Shown here piece after piece: positions 9,330-28,102 of a DNA stretch of 28,102 nt (within the stretch, counting starts at the first letter, position 1; each line of letters starts with the position of its first letter). A program made the translations under genes and the position numbers. Source of the DNA: Clostridia bacterium (GTDB taxonomy: Bacteria; Bacillota; Clostridia; Christensenellales; Borkfalkiaceae); contig JAXFZW010000064.1 in NCBI GenBank assembly GCA_034184645.1, positions 1 through 28,102 of the forward strand. The letters are read 5' to 3'. The notes below the pieces were generated by a model. The model saw only the letters and a list, made by a program, of their open reading frames with translations. It was not told the origin of the DNA and did no database searches.

Positions 9330-9358
9330 TTACCATATTATATATTGTATCATAAAAT
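9330..9358 (+). promoter_or_regulatory. candidate weak, possibly activator-dependent promoter of the ABC operon
   Basis: TTACCA, 17 nt, TAAAAT. The region is AT-rich and alternative -10 boxes exist. Confidence 0.35.
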
Positions 9359-9422
9359 TGTATAGAAATCTGCGGAGAACATCTTCCGCTTTTCGGATAT
9401 AGTGATAAAGGAGGATGAACTG

Positions 9423-11105
9423 ATGAAAAACTTTTTGGTAAAGTTTGCAACTAAAAGAGTTATTGCTATTTTAGTTACGGTCGTTTTAGTTATAACTTTG
9501 CTCGCGCTCAGCGGTTTTTCAAAGGGGAAAACGGTAGACGGCAGCAGCGTTTACAGTGAAGAAGGTAAAAAGGCGATGGAGGAAAAGGACGAAAGTCAGT
9601 ATTCTTCGGACTACGTAACGCTCCGTGTTGATCTTCACGGTTGGACGCCTACCACCACGACTTCGTCTTCTACGGGCGTATCGTCGTACAACTCGCCTAA
9701 GATAATTGCGAACCAATTTGAAGCCGAAATGCGTTCAAGGCTTGCCGAAGAAAGGGGTATGGACGAAAACGACGTCGGTTACCCTGTAAGGATAGAGTGG
9801 GTAAGGGATAAAAAAATAAGCGTCAGCAACGAACAGATGAGTGAGTACTTCCAGTTGCAGCTTACCCGTAAAACAACGCCGACCATTGCGTTTACCTGGG
9901 GTACTAACTTCCAGGACGCAGGCTGGTACGTTGACCTTACCGAATTCCTTAACGAAAAGAATACGTACGAAACGGACGCAACTTTAAAGAATAACGAACA
10001 TTGGAAAGATTCGTTTGAAGATTATTTATGGCAACTCGACAGTATCCGTCAGCTTGACGGTAAAATCGCAGCCGTTCCGATTACGCTTTTCGACGGCACG
10101 GCGTCTGCAATCGTATATAACAGCGACGCGATTTATAATAACAGTTCGATAAGAAGCTTGCTTGACGGCAACAGGTATCTAGGCGTATCAAAGCAACTTG
10201 ACTTTGCGGACTGGATGAAAATAGTCAATGCGGCGTCGGGAAATGCCGCAACCAAAATAATCGATACCGAAAACTACCCGTATGCTGCGGACTCCTGGTT
10301 GTTCCAGTTTGAATTAGGCCCTGCGTACATGAGTTATTTTGAAGATCATTTTTACGGCGGCAGGCATATAAGCGGTGAGGAACTTTTAAGGGCGATAATT
10401 AAGGACGAACTTAATCCGGTTAAGCAGGCTTACGTAAGGGAACTTTTAGGAAACGTCAAAGCGTATATGAGTTATCTTAACGATAGTTCGACTGAAACTA
10501 CGACTTGGGATAACGGTACGGCTTACGCAAAGGTTGTAGGTTCTTGGGCGTATACGAACGAAAAAACTTCTAACCCGATAGGCAGTAAGTTTAACTGGGA
10601 AATGGTTCCGAGTACGGTTATCGACGAAACGAGCGCTTATACGAGAGATTTCGTTTCATGGGAAAAGGGTATCGCTTCCGCACGGCCGGCAGCCGACCTT
10701 TACCTTAATATAATGAAAGCGGGCGTCACCAACGACGGAACGCTTACCGGGACTATAAACGAAACAAAACTTCGTTATGCGGTAGAATTCTTAAAATACC
10801 TTACGACAAAGGCTAACAACTCGACGATGATTACCGAAATGAACACGAGTTTAGGCGCAGTCAAGGGCGCTACGATGCCTTCCTGGATTAACACAAGTAA
10901 GTTTAAGGATTGCTACTTTGCCAAAACGACTACGGTCAGGGGTTGGCCTAACGGATTTACCACTTCCGCAAGAGGACAGATGTCCGCACTCATTTCCAAA
11001 TGGGTAAAAGGGCAGATAGGCGACAGCGACTTCTATTCGGGATGGGATCGCTGGCAAAAAATAGGCGCAAGGGCGATGGCAAAATCGCTGAACATTACGC
11101 TTTAA
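9423..11105 (+). CDS. CUT1-type ABC transporter extracellular solute-binding protein
   Basis: Heads an operon with two CUT1 permeases. It has an N-terminal hydrophobic anchor and SBP-like segments (GWYVDLTEFLNEKNTY, DGKIAAVP, VEFLKYLTT). SD GGAGG at 9410-9414 supports ATG 9423. Confidence 0.75.
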   Translation: MKNFLVKFATKRVIAILVTVVLVITLLALSGFSKGKTVDGSSVYSEEGKKAMEEKDESQYSSDYVTLRVDLHGWTPTTTTSSSTGVSSYNSPKIIANQFEAEMRSRLAEERGMDENDVGYPVRIEWVRDKKISVSNEQMSEYFQLQLTRKTTPTIAFTWGTNFQDAGWYVDLTEFLNEKNTYETDATLKNNEHWKDSFEDYLWQLDSIRQLDGKIAAVPITLFDGTASAIVYNSDAIYNNSSIRSLLDGNRYLGVSKQLDFADWMKIVNAASGNAATKIIDTENYPYAADSWLFQFELGPAYMSYFEDHFYGGRHISGEELLRAIIKDELNPVKQAYVRELLGNVKAYMSYLNDSSTETTTWDNGTAYAKVVGSWAYTNEKTSNPIGSKFNWEMVPSTVIDETSAYTRDFVSWEKGIASARPAADLYLNIMKAGVTNDGTLTGTINETKLRYAVEFLKYLTTKANNSTMITEMNTSLGAVKGATMPSWINTSKFKDCYFAKTTTVRGWPNGFTTSARGQMSALISKWVKGQIGDSDFYSGWDRWQKIGARAMAKSLNITL

Positions 11106-20185: not shown

Positions 20186-20214
20186 TTGATTTTGTCATAT
20201 TCTTATAGTAGAAT
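20186..20214 (+). promoter_or_regulatory. sigma-A-type promoter of the first large-protein + peptide unit
   Basis: TTGATT, 17 nt, TAGAAT, with an A/T-rich UP-like region upstream. Confidence 0.65.
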
Positions 20215-20392
20215 ATAAATAGACAACTTGGCAATTTGACTAGATACGGCGGGTAAGCTCAAAAGGGTTTAGCCGTTATTTATTCTCTAAAAAATTCGTC
20301 GGTCGTCATATTTTAATAATGAAAAGGCTACAACGGGTGTTGCTAGTTTTTTGCGCCTTTCTTAAAATATCCCAAGGGGGGAAAGGGATTTT

Positions 20393-23300
20393 ATGAGAAG
20401 TTTTTTTAAGGCTGTTTCACTTAAACGCAAAATTGCGGTAGGTTTGCTTGCCGCGCTGTTTTTAGGTTGTGCGGCGTTTATGGGTTTTTCCGCCCTTACG
20501 AGCAGAACGGAAACTGCTTCGGCTACTAATGTAAATACGCGAATAATTAATTCGGGTTCGTCTTCTGATACGACGTGGATTTATTCGGCAAATAACAGTA
20601 ACGCTTTTGCTCCGGCGTCGGCAAACGGTGCGGTGTTGAACCTTGTCGTTCACCCTAACGTTGCGGACGGGTCGGTATCATACAGGTCGTTTTACGTATC
20701 TTTTGCTCCCGACAGCTCTGCAAGTTCCGGTTTCGTTTGGGGCCAAAGTACGACTTACGGGCTTAATTCGGGCAGATTCATGATCGAGTTCATGGTAAAC
20801 GAGGACATCAACGGCATATATACGCAGTATCACGTTCCTAACGGTGCCGGCGGCTCGTATTCTACGGGGTACATGCAGCTTTCTCCGAACATTTGGAATG
20901 CAGGTGCGACTGTCTCTCAAATGCCGTATTTTACGTTAAACATCGTAATGGCACAATTTAGCGGCGTTTGGGACGTAGTTATAAACGACAGAACGGACTT
21001 ATCGCTTGTTACGCGTATTGCCGCTAACGGATGGGGCGCTAACGGTTTTTCGGCTTTTATCGGTCCGGACTACTTTACGGCGGGAAGATATAACTTTGCA
21101 GTCCGCAATAAGTCTGACCTTTCCGCGGTAATTAACAAAATAGACGTTTATTACGGCGGATGCAGGGCGATAGATTCGGCAGAAAACACTTATATTCAGG
21201 CGCGCGCAACCCGTTGGGTAACCCCATATGCTGCAAGCGCTAACGCATACGGTACGATTGAAGGATCACTTGTTCAACTTAACGATCACGGCGGATACGT
21301 CGATTTTGCGTTTTTATTTACGTCACGTCCTTATACGGGTGGGTACCCGATAATTTCAATAGCGTTTTCGCCTGACGGTACGTGCTATTTCAGCGATTCT
21401 GACGGTACGCTCGGCTCAAACGGTCGTTTTTACGTCAATGTAATGATAAACGGCGACAACGGAGGCATTTACGTTTCACCGCACTTTTACAAAGGAATGA
21501 GTGAAAGCAACAGTACATGGAAACTGCTCGGCACGCTCAACAACGGAGGTATTTTCGGTATAAGGTTCAAATTCGTTGCGGCGCAAGGCGGTTGGGGTTT
21601 CAAAATTTCCGACACGAGCGAGGCAACCACGTTTGATTTTACTTCAAATTTCCAACGATACGTAACGCAGTCCGCAGTAATGAGCGGCGGTTGCAGTATA
21701 AACGTCGGCGCTGCGGGATTTATGAACAACTGGTCTTCGAACTACGCAAGCGTTTACTGGATTACCAACCAAACGAGCGGAGCAAACCTTTACAACGGTT
21801 ACGACGTGAGAACTAACAGTTCCGCAATAATGGAAGTTCTTACCGGCTCGCCTGCGGAAAGGGTAAGCTACTACGACGATGCGAATTCGCACTCTGCGGG
21901 GTCGTACCTTAACTACACTTCGGGCTTTAAGGCTAATTTCAGCGTCGTTCTTACTTCCGCAATTACGTCAGACCAGGCTATTCAAATTTGTTTCGGGCCG
22001 GACAATACCGTAATGAACGCCGGGACGACTAGTCAATCGGGCATAGGTTACGCGCACTTTACGGTGGTTATGACTTTACACAGCAACGGTAACCTGTACG
22101 CCACGGTTTACTATAAACTGTCAAGCAATACGTGGACGGAACTTGCGGGCACGGAATACGGTAAAATCAAACCGATTTCATTAACCAGCGGTTCAACTAT
22201 CAATTTTACAATTGCCGTGCGCAAGTTAAACTCCGTTGCATATAACGGCAACTCGTCGACTTACGGACTTTTTGTTGACGACGTGCTTATTGACGCAACT
22301 AACTTCAATTCGTTGTTTAACAGCAGGTCACCTAAATTCGTTACGGGAACTAATAAAAATATAGCGATTACGGCAGATGTAACCAACAGTTTTTCAAATT
22401 TCCCCGGAAACGTTTATTTGTTAAGCGTGGCTGCGGATACTTCGGCTAAAACGTTTACTTCGGTAAATACGGCGACGATTTGCGACGTTTCAACGTCGAG
22501 CACTTATAACACGGCGGCGGATACGGTTTCGGCTACCGGTGGAATTTATTACTACGGTGCAACAAGCACGACTCAAAGCGCATACATAACGTTTGAATTT
22601 ACCGCAAAATACACTACATCCGCGGGAATCGTCGCAGTACTTAACGCAACGTCCGCGTCGCCTACGACCGGTGCGGGTATCATTATAAACAGCAGCAGCG
22701 GTATAAACATTATAGTCGGAAATAACAGCAGCAACTATACAGTCACAAGGAAAAATCCGTTAGCAAACAACACAACTTACACGTTCCGACTTACGGTTGC
22801 AAAGTCGAGTTCGCTCGTTTACGTCGGCGTTTGTATAGTAAACGGCTCAACGGTTACGTACAGTATGGAAGCAGTGGGAGAAGCGGCGATAAATACGTCT
22901 TCGTACACAATTTATCTCGGTGGCGCAAGCGGTTCGGTATCGTTTAATACTATAACTAACCACCGCGCGGCGTTCGATAACAACGGAACGGTGACGAGTC
23001 TTCGCTTTACGACAACTGCCGTAACCGCTCCGTCAATAACGGGTGTAGCGACTTACTACACCGGCTACTGGTACAAAGGCGGCACGTTTAATTCGACAAA
23101 CAAACGTACACCTGGCGCATCAACCGGAGATACTTCTTCGGCGGTTTACGTCAGAAAAGATATGATGAGCAATACCACGCAGATATCGGCACAGCTTAAC
23201 GCCGTAAGTTCGGGCGCACTCGTGGCGAAGTCGGGACTTTGGAGAGATTCGGTGTCCGGAAGTATGTCTACTACAAAGGGTTACCTTGCGTTTATGCACA

Positions 23301-23749
23301 ACATGAGTAAAACCTTATACAACTCGCTTGAAAGTGCGGTAAGTTCGGGTAAAATTACAGGATTTAAAATACACGTTTTATTCGGAAACAGCAGCGGTAC
23401 AAACGTAACTCCGACTGCGACATCGGGTAACCCCGGGTCAATAAATTGCAAGCTAAAAGCAACTTGCGTTGATACGGAAGAAAAGACGAAACTTATTTAC
23501 GGTGCGGATTCAAACAACTATTCGTTCGTTGGGTACATAGGAATAGGTGTCGCGAATAAGTCCGTAATTTTCCAAAGCGTTTTGTGTGTGGAAATAATTC
23601 AGCTTGACGGAACGCATACTTACGTATTATCGAATTATAGTTCAAGCACGGGTCAACAATCGCTTAAAGGCGCTGCGACTACCGCATTAACAACTTATTC
23701 AGGGACGCTTACCGCAGCACAGAAAGCCGCGATAGCGAATTATAAATAA
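20393..23749 (+). CDS. 1118-aa secreted protein with repeated beta-rich domains and a conserved C-terminal domain; function unknown
   Basis: Signal peptide ends TETASA. The protein is S/T/N/G-rich, has no C-terminal TM or LPXTG, and is colinear with 24368-27619. Confidence 0.85.
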   Translation: MRSFFKAVSLKRKIAVGLLAALFLGCAAFMGFSALTSRTETASATNVNTRIINSGSSSDTTWIYSANNSNAFAPASANGAVLNLVVHPNVADGSVSYRSFYVSFAPDSSASSGFVWGQSTTYGLNSGRFMIEFMVNEDINGIYTQYHVPNGAGGSYSTGYMQLSPNIWNAGATVSQMPYFTLNIVMAQFSGVWDVVINDRTDLSLVTRIAANGWGANGFSAFIGPDYFTAGRYNFAVRNKSDLSAVINKIDVYYGGCRAIDSAENTYIQARATRWVTPYAASANAYGTIEGSLVQLNDHGGYVDFAFLFTSRPYTGGYPIISIAFSPDGTCYFSDSDGTLGSNGRFYVNVMINGDNGGIYVSPHFYKGMSESNSTWKLLGTLNNGGIFGIRFKFVAAQGGWGFKISDTSEATTFDFTSNFQRYVTQSAVMSGGCSINVGAAGFMNNWSSNYASVYWITNQTSGANLYNGYDVRTNSSAIMEVLTGSPAERVSYYDDANSHSAGSYLNYTSGFKANFSVVLTSAITSDQAIQICFGPDNTVMNAGTTSQSGIGYAHFTVVMTLHSNGNLYATVYYKLSSNTWTELAGTEYGKIKPISLTSGSTINFTIAVRKLNSVAYNGNSSTYGLFVDDVLIDATNFNSLFNSRSPKFVTGTNKNIAITADVTNSFSNFPGNVYLLSVAADTSAKTFTSVNTATICDVSTSSTYNTAADTVSATGGIYYYGATSTTQSAYITFEFTAKYTTSAGIVAVLNATSASPTTGAGIIINSSSGINIIVGNNSSNYTVTRKNPLANNTTYTFRLTVAKSSSLVYVGVCIVNGSTVTYSMEAVGEAAINTSSYTIYLGGASGSVSFNTITNHRAAFDNNGTVTSLRFTTTAVTAPSITGVATYYTGYWYKGGTFNSTNKRTPGASTGDTSSAVYVRKDMMSNTTQISAQLNAVSSGALVAKSGLWRDSVSGSMSTTKGYLAFMHNMSKTLYNSLESAVSSGKITGFKIHVLFGNSSGTNVTPTATSGNPGSINCKLKATCVDTEEKTKLIYGADSNNYSFVGYIGIGVANKSVIFQSVLCVEIIQLDGTHTYVLSNYSSSTGQQSLKGAATTALTTYSGTLTAAQKAAIANYK

Positions 23750-23786
23750 GAAAAGACGAACAATACTTTTAAGGAGAGAAGGCGAA

Positions 23787-23942
23787 ATGCAAAAGTTCAA
23801 GTATGAAAAGCCTTTAATAGAAATATATTTAAGACCGGAAGGCGAAGAAGACGTTTTGGACTTCATCGGAACCAGCCCGAACGCAGGCGGAGGCAGCGGT
23901 AACAGCGGCGGCGCGGGTAGCGGCGGCGACTTCAACAATTAG
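23787..23942 (+). CDS. 51-aa YEKP/Gly-rich peptide MQKFKYEKPLIEIYLRPEGEEDVLDFIGTSPNAGGGSGNSGGAGSGGDFNN (not in the ORF track)
   Basis: SD AAGGAG at 23771-23776, ATG 23787 and TAG 23940-23942. It has the same architecture and position as the 27633-27803 peptide. Confidence 0.85.
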   Translation: MQKFKYEKPLIEIYLRPEGEEDVLDFIGTSPNAGGGSGNSGGAGSGGDFNN

Positions 23943-24052
23943 TAGGTTTTGCAGTTTAATTGCGCCGATAAAGTGCTTAAATAAGCTGAAAGTGTACCCT
24001 TTGGCAAGCTTAAAAGTATATTTTCGGAATATATGATAAGGTAATAAAACTT

Positions 24053-24084
24053 AAACCCTTGCGATAGCAGGGGTTTTGTTTTTT
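24053..24084 (+). terminator. intrinsic terminator closing the first protein + peptide unit
   Basis: AAACCCTTGC-gata-GCAGGGGTTT followed by TGTTTTTT. Confidence 0.82.
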
Positions 24085-24195
24085 AGTAACTTTGCTTAAC
24101 GTAAAAGTATTTTAGTCCGTACATTTAAAAACGGCTTTTCATACGGGGCAAAATGTACCTAAATGGCTGAAATTAATTTTTTCTTAAATTTTATA

Positions 24196-24224
24196 TTGAA
24201 CGGCTTTACTCTTTATAGTATAAT
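24196..24224 (+). promoter_or_regulatory. sigma-A-type promoter of the second large-protein + peptide unit
   Basis: TTGAAC, 17 nt, TATAAT. The context TTATAGTA(T/G)AATA is shared with the 20186 promoter. Confidence 0.72.
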
Positions 24225-24367
24225 AATCATAGGGACAATATCGAATAAATTTCTAGCGTTTTTGCCGTATCGCATGTCGAAACAAAAAAAGGTTTCGGCT
24301 GGGTTATGGTTTTAAATGCTATAAATTGATTGCATCTTGGGAAAATCTTTATTGATAGGGGGATGTT

Positions 24368-27300
24368 ATGAAAGCCTTAAATAAAAGATTATCTACATTC
24401 AGAAAGGTAGCGGTTACCTGTCTTTTCGCATTGCTTTTGCTTTGCGGGGCAATGTTTGCTCTTGCTCAATCGAACAAAAAGGCTGACGCAACCGAGTGGG
24501 GGACTTTTGCGATTTCCCCGGACGGTGCTCAGGCGTGGAGCTGGTGGGACAATAACGGCGGTAATTATATACCTGCGAGCACGTACGGGACAATGTTCAA
24601 CATCGAAATCGCTCAGGCTTCGATTTTGAACGAGCACAGATTTATGGATATGTCGGTTTCGCCGACAAACTCAATGCTTTGGCTCGGTGCGGGCGACGTT
24701 TTCGCTAACGAACCGCAGGGCAGCGGAAGATTTTTACTCCGCTTTATGTTCAATATGGACAATAAGGGTATTTACGTCTTTATTTACTTGCCGAACGGCG
24801 GTACGGGCGTAAATTACCTTATGAACGTGGCAAACGGCATTTGGCCGGACGCAGGCTACGGTAGTCCGTTTAACTTAAGCCTTCGCATTATTCAGGTAAA
24901 CGGTGTTTGGGACTTATACATAAACGACCACAGCGTAAACGGTGAATTGGGCAACGCATTTTCGACTTACGTCGGCGGTGCGGCGGTTGCGGCGAACAAC
25001 GGTGTGAATTATACCGTATCGAATCCGCAGTCGGCTACAACGAAACAATACTACGTTGCAACCGGTACGTCGCGCGCAATTACCGATGAAGAAATAGTTG
25101 ACTTGCAGTCTCGCTTTAAAATGATGTCCGCTTACGCTGCGGGTATTACGTCTTACTACGGCGCAGCCGGGGAACTTAAAACTTTCTCTGCGTTCGGCGG
25201 ATACTTCGATTTGAATCTTGACGTAAGAAATCGCCCGTGGACGGGTTATTGGTCGCAATTCCAGGTAGGTTTTTCACACGACGCTACTGTGCCGTTTGAT
25301 TATAACGATACGAATATCGACGGTTCGAGATTCTACTTCAACTTTATGATAAATCCGAACGGCGTTTTGTATGTTGCTCCTCACTTTGAATATTCTACGG
25401 GCGACGTCAACGATTGGGCGGAAGTTACGTCGTACGACGCCGCGCCTATTCGTTTGCGCTTTGCGTTTATGGCGAGAAGCGGCGGCTGGGGATTATATAT
25501 CATAGCGAACGATTCTATCGTGCTTGACTATACCACTCAGTTTATTGCCAAAGTCAATCAAAACACCTTTATGGCTGATATAGGAACTTCCGCTCCTAAA
25601 ATAAATATCGGTACCAGGGGCAACCAGAATATGGGCTTCTGCAACTACGCCGACATTTACTTCGTAAACGGTGCGGAATTCAACGGTTACGAAACGAGGG
25701 TAAATCAATCTGCGCTTATGGAAGTGGTTATCGCTTCGCCGGCAACCAAAACTTCGTATTACGACGACGCGAAGCCGATTGCTCAGGGAAAATCGTTTAT
25801 CGATATTCCCGCAAATACCGCTTTTGACGTAAGCTTTAACGTTGAACTCGCTGCGGCGCTTACTTCCGAACAGAAATTCTACGTTTCTTTCGGACCCGAC
25901 GCCGTAGTTATGGACAACAATGCGTCGAGAACAGATACGGGTGCAAATCACTTTATGGTTGCCGTTTCGGTTAATACCGACGGTATAATGCGTGCGCAGA
26001 TTTTATATAACGATCTTAACGGCAATGCGGTTAAACCGCTTAACGACATTTCGCTCGGTAATGCCGGCGCCTTTGCAAACCTTGCCGGCGCTCAATTCGG
26101 TGTAACCATCGGGTTCCACAAAGTTAATACGGCAACGTCCGCCGATAACTACTGGGGCATTTACTTAAACGGTCAGTTGCTTGACGTAATTAACTTCGCT
26201 TACATTATCCACAGGGCCGGTACGGGCTTTATGGAAGGGGCAAACAAAAACATTGCGATTTTAGTTGATTCGTCAAACGGTTTCGGAACTTTCCCCGGTA
26301 ATATCTATCTTACAGGTATTTTCACCGTAGCTCAAACCGCTACCGCTACCGGAACGGTCGTTTCGGTTGCCGACCTTAAAACGGTTGCGGGTACGGACGT
26401 TTTTGCGGACAGCGTTTCGCTTAACAAAAATACGGCGTACTACTACAATGCTACTTCCGCAACTGAAAGCAACGACGTTATTTTCAAAACTACGATTAAC
26501 TATGTTAAAAACGATAATTACGAATATACGATAATGCTCCGTACGGTTACCGATCAGGAAAACGGCGTTCCGACTTTTGTAATCAGAAACAACGTTTTGT
26601 ACCTCGGCTCGATTAATTCTAACGGTTCGCAAAGCACTTTCATTATGAGAAGCGCACCGCTTACCGGCGGAGTGAATTACGAAATTGACTTTGCTGCACT
26701 TACCGTTTCAAACGATACTTCTAAGACCTTGCTTTCCGCAAGAATTATCGAAGTTAATTCGGGTACGGTAAGGGCTGCCGCCGAATGTGTGTACGAACTA
26801 AGTAAAAGTGCCGACTACGGCGTGGTATTAGGCGCAGGCGGAACTACCGCGGTAACCTTCAATTCGCTTTCGCACAGAGTTAAATTTACGGATAAAACGG
26901 GTGCGACTGAAATTTCTTCCGCAAGATACCTTGACGGTGAAACGGGTGCCGCTGCTCCTGCAAGTACGCTTGCTCCGTCAGTTACGAACTATACTTTCCG
27001 AGGATGGGAGGATGACAGCCACGTCGCCTACGTTGCGGGTAGTCCCGTAAAAGCGACTAAAACTTACAAGGCGGCTTACAATTTTACGGCGACAAGTCTT
27101 ATTACGGCGGAAATAAATACCAAACAAGTTAAATATGCTCCGACTTCGCAGATTTGGCTCAGAAACGGTCAGGTCGGCGCGGCGATTATGTTTATTAACA
27201 ACCTTTCAAACTCTTTCTACGAGTATCTTGACGGTCAGGTTGCGAACGGAAATATCACTTCTTATAAAGTAGGTACGCTTATTACAAACAAAACGCTTAC

Positions 27301-27619
27301 CGAATTAACTATGGTGGTAGGCGCAAGCGGCGTCGCTAAATACGAATCCACGGGTTATTTCTTAAACGACTCGGCAAAAGACGCAAAAGTAAGATATATC
27401 GCAAGCGGAATTTACAATATTCCTTCCGCTAATTACGGAACGACGCTTACTTCACGCGTTTACGTTGAAATTACACAAACCAACGGCGAAGTCGTTTATG
27501 CGTACGGTACGTTTAATCGCGGTAGTTTAAGCAATGCGGCAAAAATTGCGATTGAACAGGACGCTGTTTACTATACCCCGGCGCAACGCACGGCGATAAG
27601 TGCTTTTATCGTGGGTTAA
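24368..27619 (+). CDS. 1083-aa secreted protein, paralog of 20393-23749, with a B-repeat-like segment before the conserved C-terminal domain
   Basis: Signal peptide ends KKADA. Blocks shared with the paralog include SGRF..FM.N.D..GIY, GVWD..IND, NGY..R.N.SA.MEV...SPA...SYYDDA, NKNIAI and FPGN.YL. Confidence 0.85.
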   Translation: MKALNKRLSTFRKVAVTCLFALLLLCGAMFALAQSNKKADATEWGTFAISPDGAQAWSWWDNNGGNYIPASTYGTMFNIEIAQASILNEHRFMDMSVSPTNSMLWLGAGDVFANEPQGSGRFLLRFMFNMDNKGIYVFIYLPNGGTGVNYLMNVANGIWPDAGYGSPFNLSLRIIQVNGVWDLYINDHSVNGELGNAFSTYVGGAAVAANNGVNYTVSNPQSATTKQYYVATGTSRAITDEEIVDLQSRFKMMSAYAAGITSYYGAAGELKTFSAFGGYFDLNLDVRNRPWTGYWSQFQVGFSHDATVPFDYNDTNIDGSRFYFNFMINPNGVLYVAPHFEYSTGDVNDWAEVTSYDAAPIRLRFAFMARSGGWGLYIIANDSIVLDYTTQFIAKVNQNTFMADIGTSAPKINIGTRGNQNMGFCNYADIYFVNGAEFNGYETRVNQSALMEVVIASPATKTSYYDDAKPIAQGKSFIDIPANTAFDVSFNVELAAALTSEQKFYVSFGPDAVVMDNNASRTDTGANHFMVAVSVNTDGIMRAQILYNDLNGNAVKPLNDISLGNAGAFANLAGAQFGVTIGFHKVNTATSADNYWGIYLNGQLLDVINFAYIIHRAGTGFMEGANKNIAILVDSSNGFGTFPGNIYLTGIFTVAQTATATGTVVSVADLKTVAGTDVFADSVSLNKNTAYYYNATSATESNDVIFKTTINYVKNDNYEYTIMLRTVTDQENGVPTFVIRNNVLYLGSINSNGSQSTFIMRSAPLTGGVNYEIDFAALTVSNDTSKTLLSARIIEVNSGTVRAAAECVYELSKSADYGVVLGAGGTTAVTFNSLSHRVKFTDKTGATEISSARYLDGETGAAAPASTLAPSVTNYTFRGWEDDSHVAYVAGSPVKATKTYKAAYNFTATSLITAEINTKQVKYAPTSQIWLRNGQVGAAIMFINNLSNSFYEYLDGQVANGNITSYKVGTLITNKTLTELTMVVGASGVAKYESTGYFLNDSAKDAKVRYIASGIYNIPSANYGTTLTSRVYVEITQTNGEVVYAYGTFNRGSLSNAAKIAIEQDAVYYTPAQRTAISAFIVG

Positions 27620-27632
27620 GGAGGGAATTAAA

Positions 27633-27803
27633 ATGAAAAACGTTCTTAATGATAAGAAAATCAAAAATTACGAAAAACCCTCTGCTGAAATGTTTTATTT
27701 TGCCAACAAACCGCTAAACGTTTTATTCGTTTCTCAAGGAGACGGTCAAGGAACGGTTGACGGCGGCGGTTGGGGAGATATGAACGACAACAACAACGGA
27801 TAA
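27633..27803 (+). CDS. 56-aa YEKP/Gly-rich peptide MKNVLNDKKIKNYEKPSAEMFYFANKPLNVLFVSQGDGQGTVDGGGWGDMNDNNNG
   Basis: SD AAGGAGGG overlaps the upstream stop codon, and ATG is at 27633. Confidence 0.85.
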   Translation: MKNVLNDKKIKNYEKPSAEMFYFANKPLNVLFVSQGDGQGTVDGGGWGDMNDNNNG

Positions 27804-27871: not shown

Positions 27872-28102
27872 ATGAAAAAGACAATTAAATTGTATTTAAC
27901 AGCCTTTTTAACCGCTCTTTTACTTGCTATGGCTACGCTTTTCGGTTTAACGGCATTTAAGGTTCAGGCGAACGCAGAAGAAGGCACGGCTACGACTACG
28001 TACTCGTGTAGTTCTACCGCTTTCCAAAGACTTGTTGCCGTTGAAGGAACTGCGCCGAACAGGAAAATAACGGTTGAAGTTGCCATTTACTGCTTGCTTC
28101 CG
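27872..28102 (+). CDS. secreted protein, 3'-truncated by the window edge
   Basis: MKKTIKLYLTAFLTALLLAMATLFGLTAFKVQANA-EEGTATTTYSC... is a Sec signal with an ANA site. The frame is open to the end of the window. Confidence 0.8.
   Translation, partial: MKKTIKLYLTAFLTALLLAMATLFGLTAFKVQANAEEGTATTTYSCSSTAFQRLVAVEGTAPNRKITVEVAIYCLLP

Follow-up and report, generated by a model that had tools for sequence, protein, structure and literature searches.

Tiny genes beside secreted-protein genes in a gut Clostridia genus are probably precursors of linear polyphosphorylated peptides

Within a 28,102-nucleotide stretch of DNA from a Clostridia bacterium, two large secreted proteins are encoded one after the other, and immediately behind each lies a very small open reading frame (ORF). 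What are the two peptides, here called pep1 and pep2, and what do they have to do with the proteins beside them? The stretch, which we call the window, is contig C64 of the metagenome-assembled genome G000 (1.28 Mb, 78% complete). A first-pass annotation made from its sequence had seen in the pairing of large protein and tiny peptide a candidate for an undescribed kind of surface-display or secretion system. We find that pep1 and pep2 are real genes belonging to a large peptide family. They are probably precursors of linear polyphosphorylated peptides (LPPs), a class of ribosomally synthesized peptide with post-translational modifications (RiPP), processed by enzymes encoded at dispersed sites in the genome and acting on the neighbouring secreted protein.

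The two large proteins, P0003 (1118 residues, 20393-23749) and P0004 (1083 residues, 24368-27619), are both encoded on the forward strand and both have a signal-anchor-like N-terminus. A pairwise comparison gives 30% identity across their full length. The pep1 ORF of 51 residues (23787-23942, forward strand) starts 37 nucleotides past the stop codon of P0003, behind the Shine-Dalgarno sequence AAGGAGAG that can be read directly at 23771-23778 on the same strand. The pep2 ORF of 56 residues (27633-27803, forward strand) starts 13 nucleotides past the stop codon of P0004, behind AAGGAGGG. The ORF list enters pep2 as a longer GTG frame beginning at 27600, but the alignment of the family supports the ATG at 27633, which we therefore take as the start. 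The two peptides share a basic N-terminus, the sequence YEKP, a hydrophobic stretch, the motif (D/N)-(V/F)-h-x-x-S (where h is hydrophobic) and a Gly-rich tail ending in D or N, and on inspection neither contains Cys or a hydrophobic signal. Both the arrangement of secreted paralogues of about 1,100 residues, each followed by a small ORF with a strong Shine-Dalgarno sequence, and these features of the peptides are as the first-pass annotation had described them.

Both ORFs are conserved coding genes. Word-based searches returned metagenome homologues of each peptide with 70-78% protein identity, on short contigs and directly behind the ends of large ORFs. In alignments of the DNA, most differences are synonymous and fall at third codon positions; the Shine-Dalgarno sequence does not vary, and just past the stop codon the similarity is lost. 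The ORFs are thus not chance frames, given the third-position bias of the differences and the loss of conservation right after the stop. Weak support for expression comes from a single sheep-gut metatranscriptome assembly holding contigs of a strain 95-99% identical to the window. These cover pep1 (23752-23935) and most of P0004, and one contig of 891 nucleotides runs from the last part of P0004 through pep2 into the gene that follows. The support is weak because carry-over of DNA into the library is possible. Most of P0003 (20450-23617 in the window) is uncovered in the same assembly, unlike P0004 and both peptides. Either a difference between strains or unequal expression of the two units could account for this.

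A profile made from five sequences gave weak matches in open frames of 40-60 residues in related genomes, with the pattern M-K-K-x-Y-E-x-P-x-h-x-h, then D-V-h-x-x-S-G and a variable tail. With 14 members the profile finds the family in 97 of 120 genomes of a Christensenellaceae-like genus, with up to 14 matches per genome; beyond the genus matches are sparse, yet they occur in several families of the order. A profile of 44 members, searched against a library of 1.84 billion cluster representatives, collects 7,977 of them at E<=0.001. Nearly all are 35-60 residues long, and their consensus is very regular, MKKxYExPEhEIhEFExEDVIxTSG followed by an acidic tail rich in Gly and aromatic residues. 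The annotation of ten family clusters was looked up, and nine were nameless while one was a 'hypothetical protein'.

Membership was examined with an independent hidden Markov model (HMM), built from 150 library sequences only and then run on the 3,082 small ORFs of G000. The only hits were pep2 (E 3.7e-5) and pep1 (E 0.081). By this score pep2 is a clear member in its sequence, and pep1 reads as divergent, having five extra residues inserted between its YxxP and Ser blocks. Among 89 unique peptides of the genus an invariant Ser lies 19 residues past the Tyr in 67, preceded by D (79/89), V (74/89), a hydrophobic residue and then two variable positions. Tyr is present in all 70 that have an exact YxxP, and every tail contains an aromatic residue. 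Pfam and NCBIfam scans of the peptides gave only weak, sub-threshold matches to thiopeptide leaders, in 5 of 44 family members. One genome (G054; loci L076, L086, L088 and L089) carries four near-identical copies of a 38-residue peptide, MKELFTAPELEVITFETEDVITTSLTNGGTGSGSKVVW, on four contigs, mostly 14 nucleotides behind a large ORF.

This architecture corresponds to a published class. Popov et al. (Nat Commun 2026; PMC13381572) described LPPs from the lppA-K-B-S-D-N cluster of Paenibacillus alginolyticus. The LppA precursors are 35-200 residues long, with an N-terminal YxxPxVLxHQxIxFETxxS and variable C-termini. LppB is a discrete RiPP recognition element (RRE) that binds the YxxP leader, LppK is an HprK-like kinase that adds several phosphates to Ser3 of the core, and LppS is a soluble peptidase, similar to signal peptidase I (SpI), that cuts after T-1. 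The ATP-binding cassette (ABC) exporter LppD and the nucleotidyltransferase LppN complete the cluster. LPPs were known there only as patchy accessory clusters of Bacilli, and their role and final structure were left open (PMC13381572).

The peptides of the genus resemble LppA as small precursors with an N-terminal YxxP leader and a hypervariable C-terminus. In most of them the Ser is 19 residues past the Tyr, compared with 18 in LppA, but in pep1 and pep2 the spacing is longer; it stands three residues past a putative cleavage motif, which is D-V-h in the genus and F-E-T in LppA. Two relatives retrieved by the family profile lie within complete clusters of the lpp type. One, P0023 (L163-L166), lies beside genes for PqqD, NTP_transf_5, ScmC (PF27840), a 144-residue SpI-like protein and an ABC exporter. 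The other, P0168 (L170-L172), lies beside ScmC, PqqD, ABC, two peptides, a 146-residue SpI-like protein and NTP_transf_5. The first-pass annotation had regarded YxxP followed by hydrophobic residues as a leader motif bound by RREs and had listed a leader-core precursor among its options. It was right on the first point, the motif matching the LppA type of leader, and membership of an LPP-type family bears out the second. It had also taken homologues amid RiPP genes to count against its proposal and for an ordinary RiPP, and such homologues exist in the clusters at L163 and L170 and beside a radical S-adenosylmethionine (SAM) gene at L079.

The cleavage site can be placed by analogy with LppA, which is cut between F-E-T and A-Q-S (PMC13381572). 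With D-V-h aligned with F-E-T the invariant Ser becomes the third residue of the core. The predicted leader of pep1 then comprises residues 1-27 (23787-23867), with Y6-E-K-P, L-I-E-I-Y-L, the five-residue insertion and D25-F-I, and its predicted core comprises residues 28-51 (23868-23942 including the stop codon), beginning G-T-S, in which Ser30 is the family-invariant Ser. For pep2 the predicted leader is residues 1-31 (27633-27725), with Y13-E-K-P, S-A-E-M-F-Y-F and N29-V-L, and the predicted core is residues 32-56 (27726-27803 including the stop codon), beginning F-V-S34 and continuing as a tail of Gly, Asp, Asn and Trp. All four segments are on the forward strand.

The window itself has no match to PqqD or to an SpI-type peptidase, in agreement with the first-pass annotation; both are encoded on other contigs of G000. 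A PqqD-type protein of 88 residues (G000:C78:4610-4876) matches PF05402 at 64 bits and is 31% identical to the RRE of the lpp-type clusters (E 3e-18). Immediately upstream is a predicted kinase of 237 residues with the P-loop GTGKST, 38-45% identical to the ScmC kinases of those clusters (E 1e-53 and 6e-51); it has no sequence match in the PDB, and in Pfam only weak matches to PEPCK and P-loop families. A soluble SpI-like peptidase of 168 residues with the motif GNSMWPT (G000:C27:5167-5673) is 35% identical to that of the clusters (E 1.6e-20). Two NTP_transf_5 genes, which are LppN-like, lie at C102:6816-7946 and C114:504-1655, both inside polysaccharide-biosynthesis loci with epimerase, dehydratase and glycosyltransferase genes, echoing the capsule-locus setting reported for LPP clusters. 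As in the LPP system, the RRE of G000 is a separate PqqD-type protein, its putative kinase is of the HprK/ScmC kind, and its SpI-like peptidase is soluble. Peptides and enzymes alike belong to the system published in 2026, and the earlier suggestion of an undescribed kind of system falls.

The arrangement of the enzymes differs from that in Bacilli. In place of one lpp cluster, those of G000 are spread over at least four contigs, and no dedicated exporter is identified among them. Across the genus the RRE is found in 119 of 120 genomes and the SpI-like peptidase also in 119 of 120, nearly always in single copy, so that what is patchy and accessory in Bacilli is near-universal in this genus of Clostridia. 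The kinase lies beside the RRE in every genome examined, and the pair has constant neighbours in DUF1846 and groES/groEL.

A leader of this kind could also belong to a lasso peptide, in which a B1 protein would recognise it and cyclisation would join the core between residue 1 and an Asp or Glu at position 7-9. The leader does resemble lasso leaders, and the only match in a PDB profile search with the peptides, an insignificant one, aligns them with the TfuA leader MEKKKYTAPQL. The best PDB sequence matches of the C78 RRE are the lasso RREs TbiB1 and TfuB1, both B1 proteins, and it hits the NCBIfam model lasso_PqqD_Bac below the cut-off. Cleavage of pep2 before G36 would put an Asp at position 8. 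Against this, pep1 has no suitably placed acidic residue, and the conserved Ser within D-V-h-x-x-S fits an LPP and not the lasso Thr at -2. G000, at 78% completeness, has no match to the lasso B2 peptidase PF13471 and no true lasso cyclase was found in it; its PF00733 Asn_synthase matches are marginal, to PP-loop proteins in frames of 345-363 residues. With neither B2 nor cyclase found in G000 we dropped the lasso reading, which we regard as very improbable. The phosphorylated lasso peptides of the paeninodin type (PadeA/PadeK with B1, B2 and C) share with pep1 and pep2 a [Y/W]xxP leader with a discrete RRE and phosphorylation, predicted for pep1 and pep2, of a Ser by an HprK-like enzyme. They differ in that here no cyclase or B2 peptidase is found, Tyr and not Trp begins the motif, and the expected product is linear.

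Modification by a radical SAM/SPASM enzyme, for example cross-linking of aromatic residues in the Trp/Phe-x-Asp/Asn motifs of the tails, would draw on the aromatic residue found in each tail and on an enzyme of this class with an N-terminal PqqD-like region encoded in G000 (C91:857-3165; L010). Within the genus that enzyme occurs in only 4 of 120 genomes, compared with 97 of 120 for the peptides, and we rejected it as the maturase because of this restricted distribution. Its gene is preceded by those for an XRE-type regulator and for a 300-residue protein that matches no family, and the enzyme has no identified precursor. A relative at L079 (G413:C1, near 173.9 kb), which might also be cited for this chemistry, has the same type of leader and a Cys-containing core in 52 residues, and its gene lies 152 nucleotides upstream of one for a radical SAM protein. 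In this order, leaders of this build seem to be shared by more than one kind of RiPP chemistry. For pep1 and pep2 themselves we consider that radical SAM chemistry is highly unlikely. The SynChlorMet cassette (HprK-like ScmC, PqqD-like ScmD and the radical SAM proteins ScmE/F; TIGR04248-04251) likewise pairs an ScmC-type kinase with a PqqD-like chaperone, and weak NCBIfam matches of both the kinase and the RRE of G000 point to it, far below the cut-offs. Unlike that cassette, the G000 pair has no ScmE/F radical SAM genes adjoining it.

We return to the reading of the peptides as LPP precursors and to their position in the genome. About 90 further loci were fetched and the 89 unique genus peptides were analysed; one crude rule was used to score signal-peptide-like starts in their neighbours and in the genes of G000 alike. 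For 80 of 89 peptides there is a gene on the same strand starting within 600 nucleotides downstream. A signal-peptide-like start was scored in 77 of these 80 genes, compared with 23% of G000 genes. The gap to the downstream gene is 35 nucleotides or less in 66 of 80, and in 21 the stop and start codons overlap. An upstream gene ending within 20 nucleotides, which is the arrangement in the window, was found for only 15 peptides, five of which have no downstream gene within 600 nucleotides. From these counts it is the downstream gene that is constant throughout the family. In the window pep1 is a clear trailing case with a terminator behind it, and pep2 lies between two secreted-protein genes.

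Gaps and overlaps of this kind would also be expected if the small ORFs were regulatory, their translation controlling the next secreted-protein gene and the peptide product having no role. The overlap in 21 of 80 and the short gap in 66 of 80 favour such an explanation. However, conservation extends beyond the frame to the amino acid sequence, which corresponds to a leader of the RRE-binding kind and includes an invariant Ser. A terminator and a gap of 425 nucleotides follow pep1, for several members no gene starts within 600 nucleotides downstream, and members also occur within RiPP clusters. We therefore consider a purely regulatory role quite improbable. The linkage does set these precursors apart from the prochlorosins, which otherwise provide a parallel: there too a single enzyme set serves many dispersed precursors with a common leader and hypervariable cores, but the chemistry and enzymes differ and prochlorosin precursors are not tied to particular neighbour genes.

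The downstream proteins have more in common than a signal peptide. One domain, which we call c1, is present in 48 of 91, directly after the signal peptide. It is found again at the C-terminus of P0004, where the c1 HMM matches residues 942-1065 with E 1e-7 in a genome-wide search with filters off and 3e-9 on the isolated C-terminus; default HMMER filters hide the match, which is seen with --max or with the C-terminus alone. The domain, a predicted nameless beta-sandwich at residues ~940-1062, is encoded at 27185-27553 on the forward strand. The C-terminal ~200 residues of P0003 are a divergent copy of the same region, reached by the c1 HMM only at E 0.89. Four other proteins with a peptide gene behind them likewise match the HMM at their C-termini. 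The position of c1 therefore adjoins the peptide gene in both arrangements, being N-terminal when the protein follows the peptide and C-terminal when the peptide trails. By BLAST, no neighbour of another peptide proved homologous to P0003 or P0004, and so the link is not to that whole protein family, c1 alone being shared.

An AlphaFold2 model of the P0004 c1 domain is a beta-sandwich with C-terminal helices (mean predicted local distance difference test score 66). Searching the PDB with it gave nothing convincing (best E 0.009, with template modelling (TM) scores below 0.31), and it resembles a nameless domain of multidomain secreted proteins in AlphaFold DB (TM score 0.5-0.57). In five well-assembled genomes we count 34 c1 domains, of which about 14 lie in genes with a peptide gene on the matching side, within ~250 nucleotides of the end that encodes the domain, and about seven more in genes with the peptide at the opposite end. 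Conversely, 22-23 of 35 peptides flank a c1 gene. The association is strong but, on these partial pairing counts and the case of one genome described below, not exclusive. In G000 only one other c1 gene was detected (C96:8208-9718); its domain is internal, no peptide gene is adjacent, and its frame seems to continue in another frame near 9356-9425, through a frameshift or an assembly error. Outside the genus, on metagenome contigs L167-L169, the family member P0165 lies 18 nucleotides behind a 988-residue Big_2 protein and has no lpp genes within 8 kb, so that an orphan precursor behind a surface protein also occurs outside this genus.

Does the peptide contact the neighbouring protein? pep2 was co-folded as the partner of three chains, namely the RRE, residues 890-1083 of P0004, and the peptidase, from which the first 11 residues were missing. 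The score was 0.73 (0.72-0.77 in three runs), which reaches a mark that 51 of the 78 solved complexes attained in calibration, along with 2 of the 108 mismatched pairs. Two unrelated partners scored 0.00, and replacement of the P0004 domain gave 0.49, the best of the controls. The confident contacts, which are listed per chain and not as pairs, fall on pep2 within its YEKP leader (residues 9-25) and its Gly/Trp tail (39-53), on the RRE at 29-42, 58-64 and 72-83, and on P0004 at 930-1022. The natural reading of the model is that the RRE would take the leader and the P0004 domain the tail. This is consistent with a halving of the confident contacts when the domain is replaced. Such a score expresses how confident the model is and does not measure binding.

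The same model bears on a simpler proposal from the first-pass annotation, in which the full-length, unmodified peptide would serve the anchor-less protein upstream, be it by donating a strand, by chaperoning it or by adapting it to an anchor, with no RiPP processing. The tail contacts with the C-terminal domain of P0004 and the fall from 0.73 to 0.49 would suit it, as would the tight gaps of 37 and 13 nucleotides, the terminator that closes the first unit, and five further trailing peptides behind proteins ending in a c1 domain. Yet with no signal peptide, an unprocessed peptide cannot follow a Sec substrate outside the cell. The conserved part of the peptide is an RRE-type leader, with homologues within complete lpp clusters, and the RRE and peptidase are core genes of the genus with a cluster-type kinase gene beside the RRE. 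Moreover, the family-wide constant neighbour is downstream and not upstream. We judge an unmodified partner to be unlikely. Of the original idea of a peptide partnered with the upstream protein the adjacency is real, but the constancy of that neighbour does not extend to the family. The broader tie to neighbouring surface proteins has stood up, with 77 of 80 downstream signal peptides, the shared c1 domain and a co-fold that passed its controls. It had been proposed to search small ORFs with a peptide HMM and to co-fold each peptide with its neighbour's C-terminal domain; the search placed the family in 97 of 120 genomes of the genus, 22-23 of 35 peptides flank c1 in the five well-assembled genomes, and the co-fold of pep2, with the RRE added, points the same way in a model.

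The first-pass annotation had given the first unit its own promoter and terminator. Promoter-like sites lie upstream of both P0003 and P0004, that of P0004 at 24196-24224 (TTGAAC, 17 nucleotides, TATAAT), and a terminator-like hairpin with a T run lies 3' of pep1 at 24053-24076, both on the forward strand. The third large protein, P0005 (17702-20011), ends in a transmembrane helix followed by KKRRA and has no peptide gene behind it, as had been seen. Pfam and NCBIfam scans gave no match for P0003, P0004 or P0005. The next secreted-protein gene, of which only the start with its signal peptide is present (27872-28102, forward strand), begins 68 nucleotides past pep2 and is truncated by the end of the contig. 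It resumes on contig C87 (C87:1-2595, an open frame of 865 residues), and for this reason C87 probably follows C64 in the genome. The order of pep2 homologue and then secreted-protein gene is repeated in L005, L006 and L008.

We can now propose how the system would work. The leader, comprising YEKP and the hydrophobic stretch, would be bound as an added beta-strand by the stand-alone PqqD-type RRE of C78. The HprK/ScmC-like kinase encoded beside it would phosphorylate the invariant Ser (Ser30 in pep1, Ser34 in pep2), the third residue of the core. The soluble SpI-like peptidase of C27 would then remove the leader three residues before this Ser, releasing an acidic core of ~24 residues, rich in Gly, Asp and Asn and always with an aromatic residue, which would probably be exported. 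In the genus the enzymes are dispersed single-copy core genes and the precursor genes are multiplied, each placed against a surface-protein gene, usually just in front of it and translationally coupled, and sometimes just behind, as here. Once mature, each peptide may act extracellularly on the product of the adjoining secreted-protein gene, in many cases by way of the c1 beta-sandwich. This last step is suggested by the fact that each precursor gene sits against a secreted-protein gene. Taken as a whole, processing of pep1 and pep2 as LPP-type precursors by dispersed enzymes, with action on the neighbouring secreted protein, is the explanation we think probable.

A number of observations weigh against it. 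Phosphorylation and cleavage of pep1 and pep2 are predictions and not chemical observations. The match of pep1 to the independent HMM reaches only E 0.081, and the spacing from Tyr to Ser is 24 in pep1 and 21 in pep2, compared with 18 in LppA and 19 in most members of the genus. G000 has no dedicated exporter of the LppD type, only generic ABC exporters with ~25-33% identity. The RRE and peptidase are also present in 23 genomes of the genus with no detected peptide, and therefore may have another substrate. The link to c1 has many exceptions; genome G123 has five c1 genes and four peptides, none adjacent. In the co-fold, part of the score may reflect structures that the model had learned, since complexes of RREs with leaders have already been solved. 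There was no confident contact between pep2 and the peptidase, which is uninformative as that chain was without its N-terminal 11 residues. The RNA library from which expression was read may contain DNA.

A more specific function can be imagined for the mature phosphopeptides, as extracellular adaptors, each specific for the adjacent surface protein, which they would tether or regulate. The acidic, aromatic core would dock onto c1, and the polyphosphorylated Ser, possibly extended by an NTP_transf_5 enzyme, would link it to a wall or capsular polymer. We put this forward as a speculative idea that is rather unlikely to be correct in full. If it were true, a RiPP pathway would provide genus-wide anchoring or display of surface proteins that lack LPXTG motifs, transmembrane anchors and S-layer-homology domains, and this would be the first function for LPPs.

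Relative to the published system (PMC13381572), what is new is the dispersed, genus-wide core machinery in Clostridia, the multiplication of precursors to as many as 14 per genome, and their coupling to secreted-protein genes and to c1, a link between peptide and surface protein that is unmentioned there and is unpublished. Thousands of unannotated small genes in gut metagenomes fall into one class. Hundreds of these precursors are found across a genus of small-genome gut Clostridia, nearly all welded to secreted-protein genes, and this provides a testable lead to the function of LPPs. If the link holds, this would be a RiPP pathway that serves the biology of the cell surface rather than antagonism.

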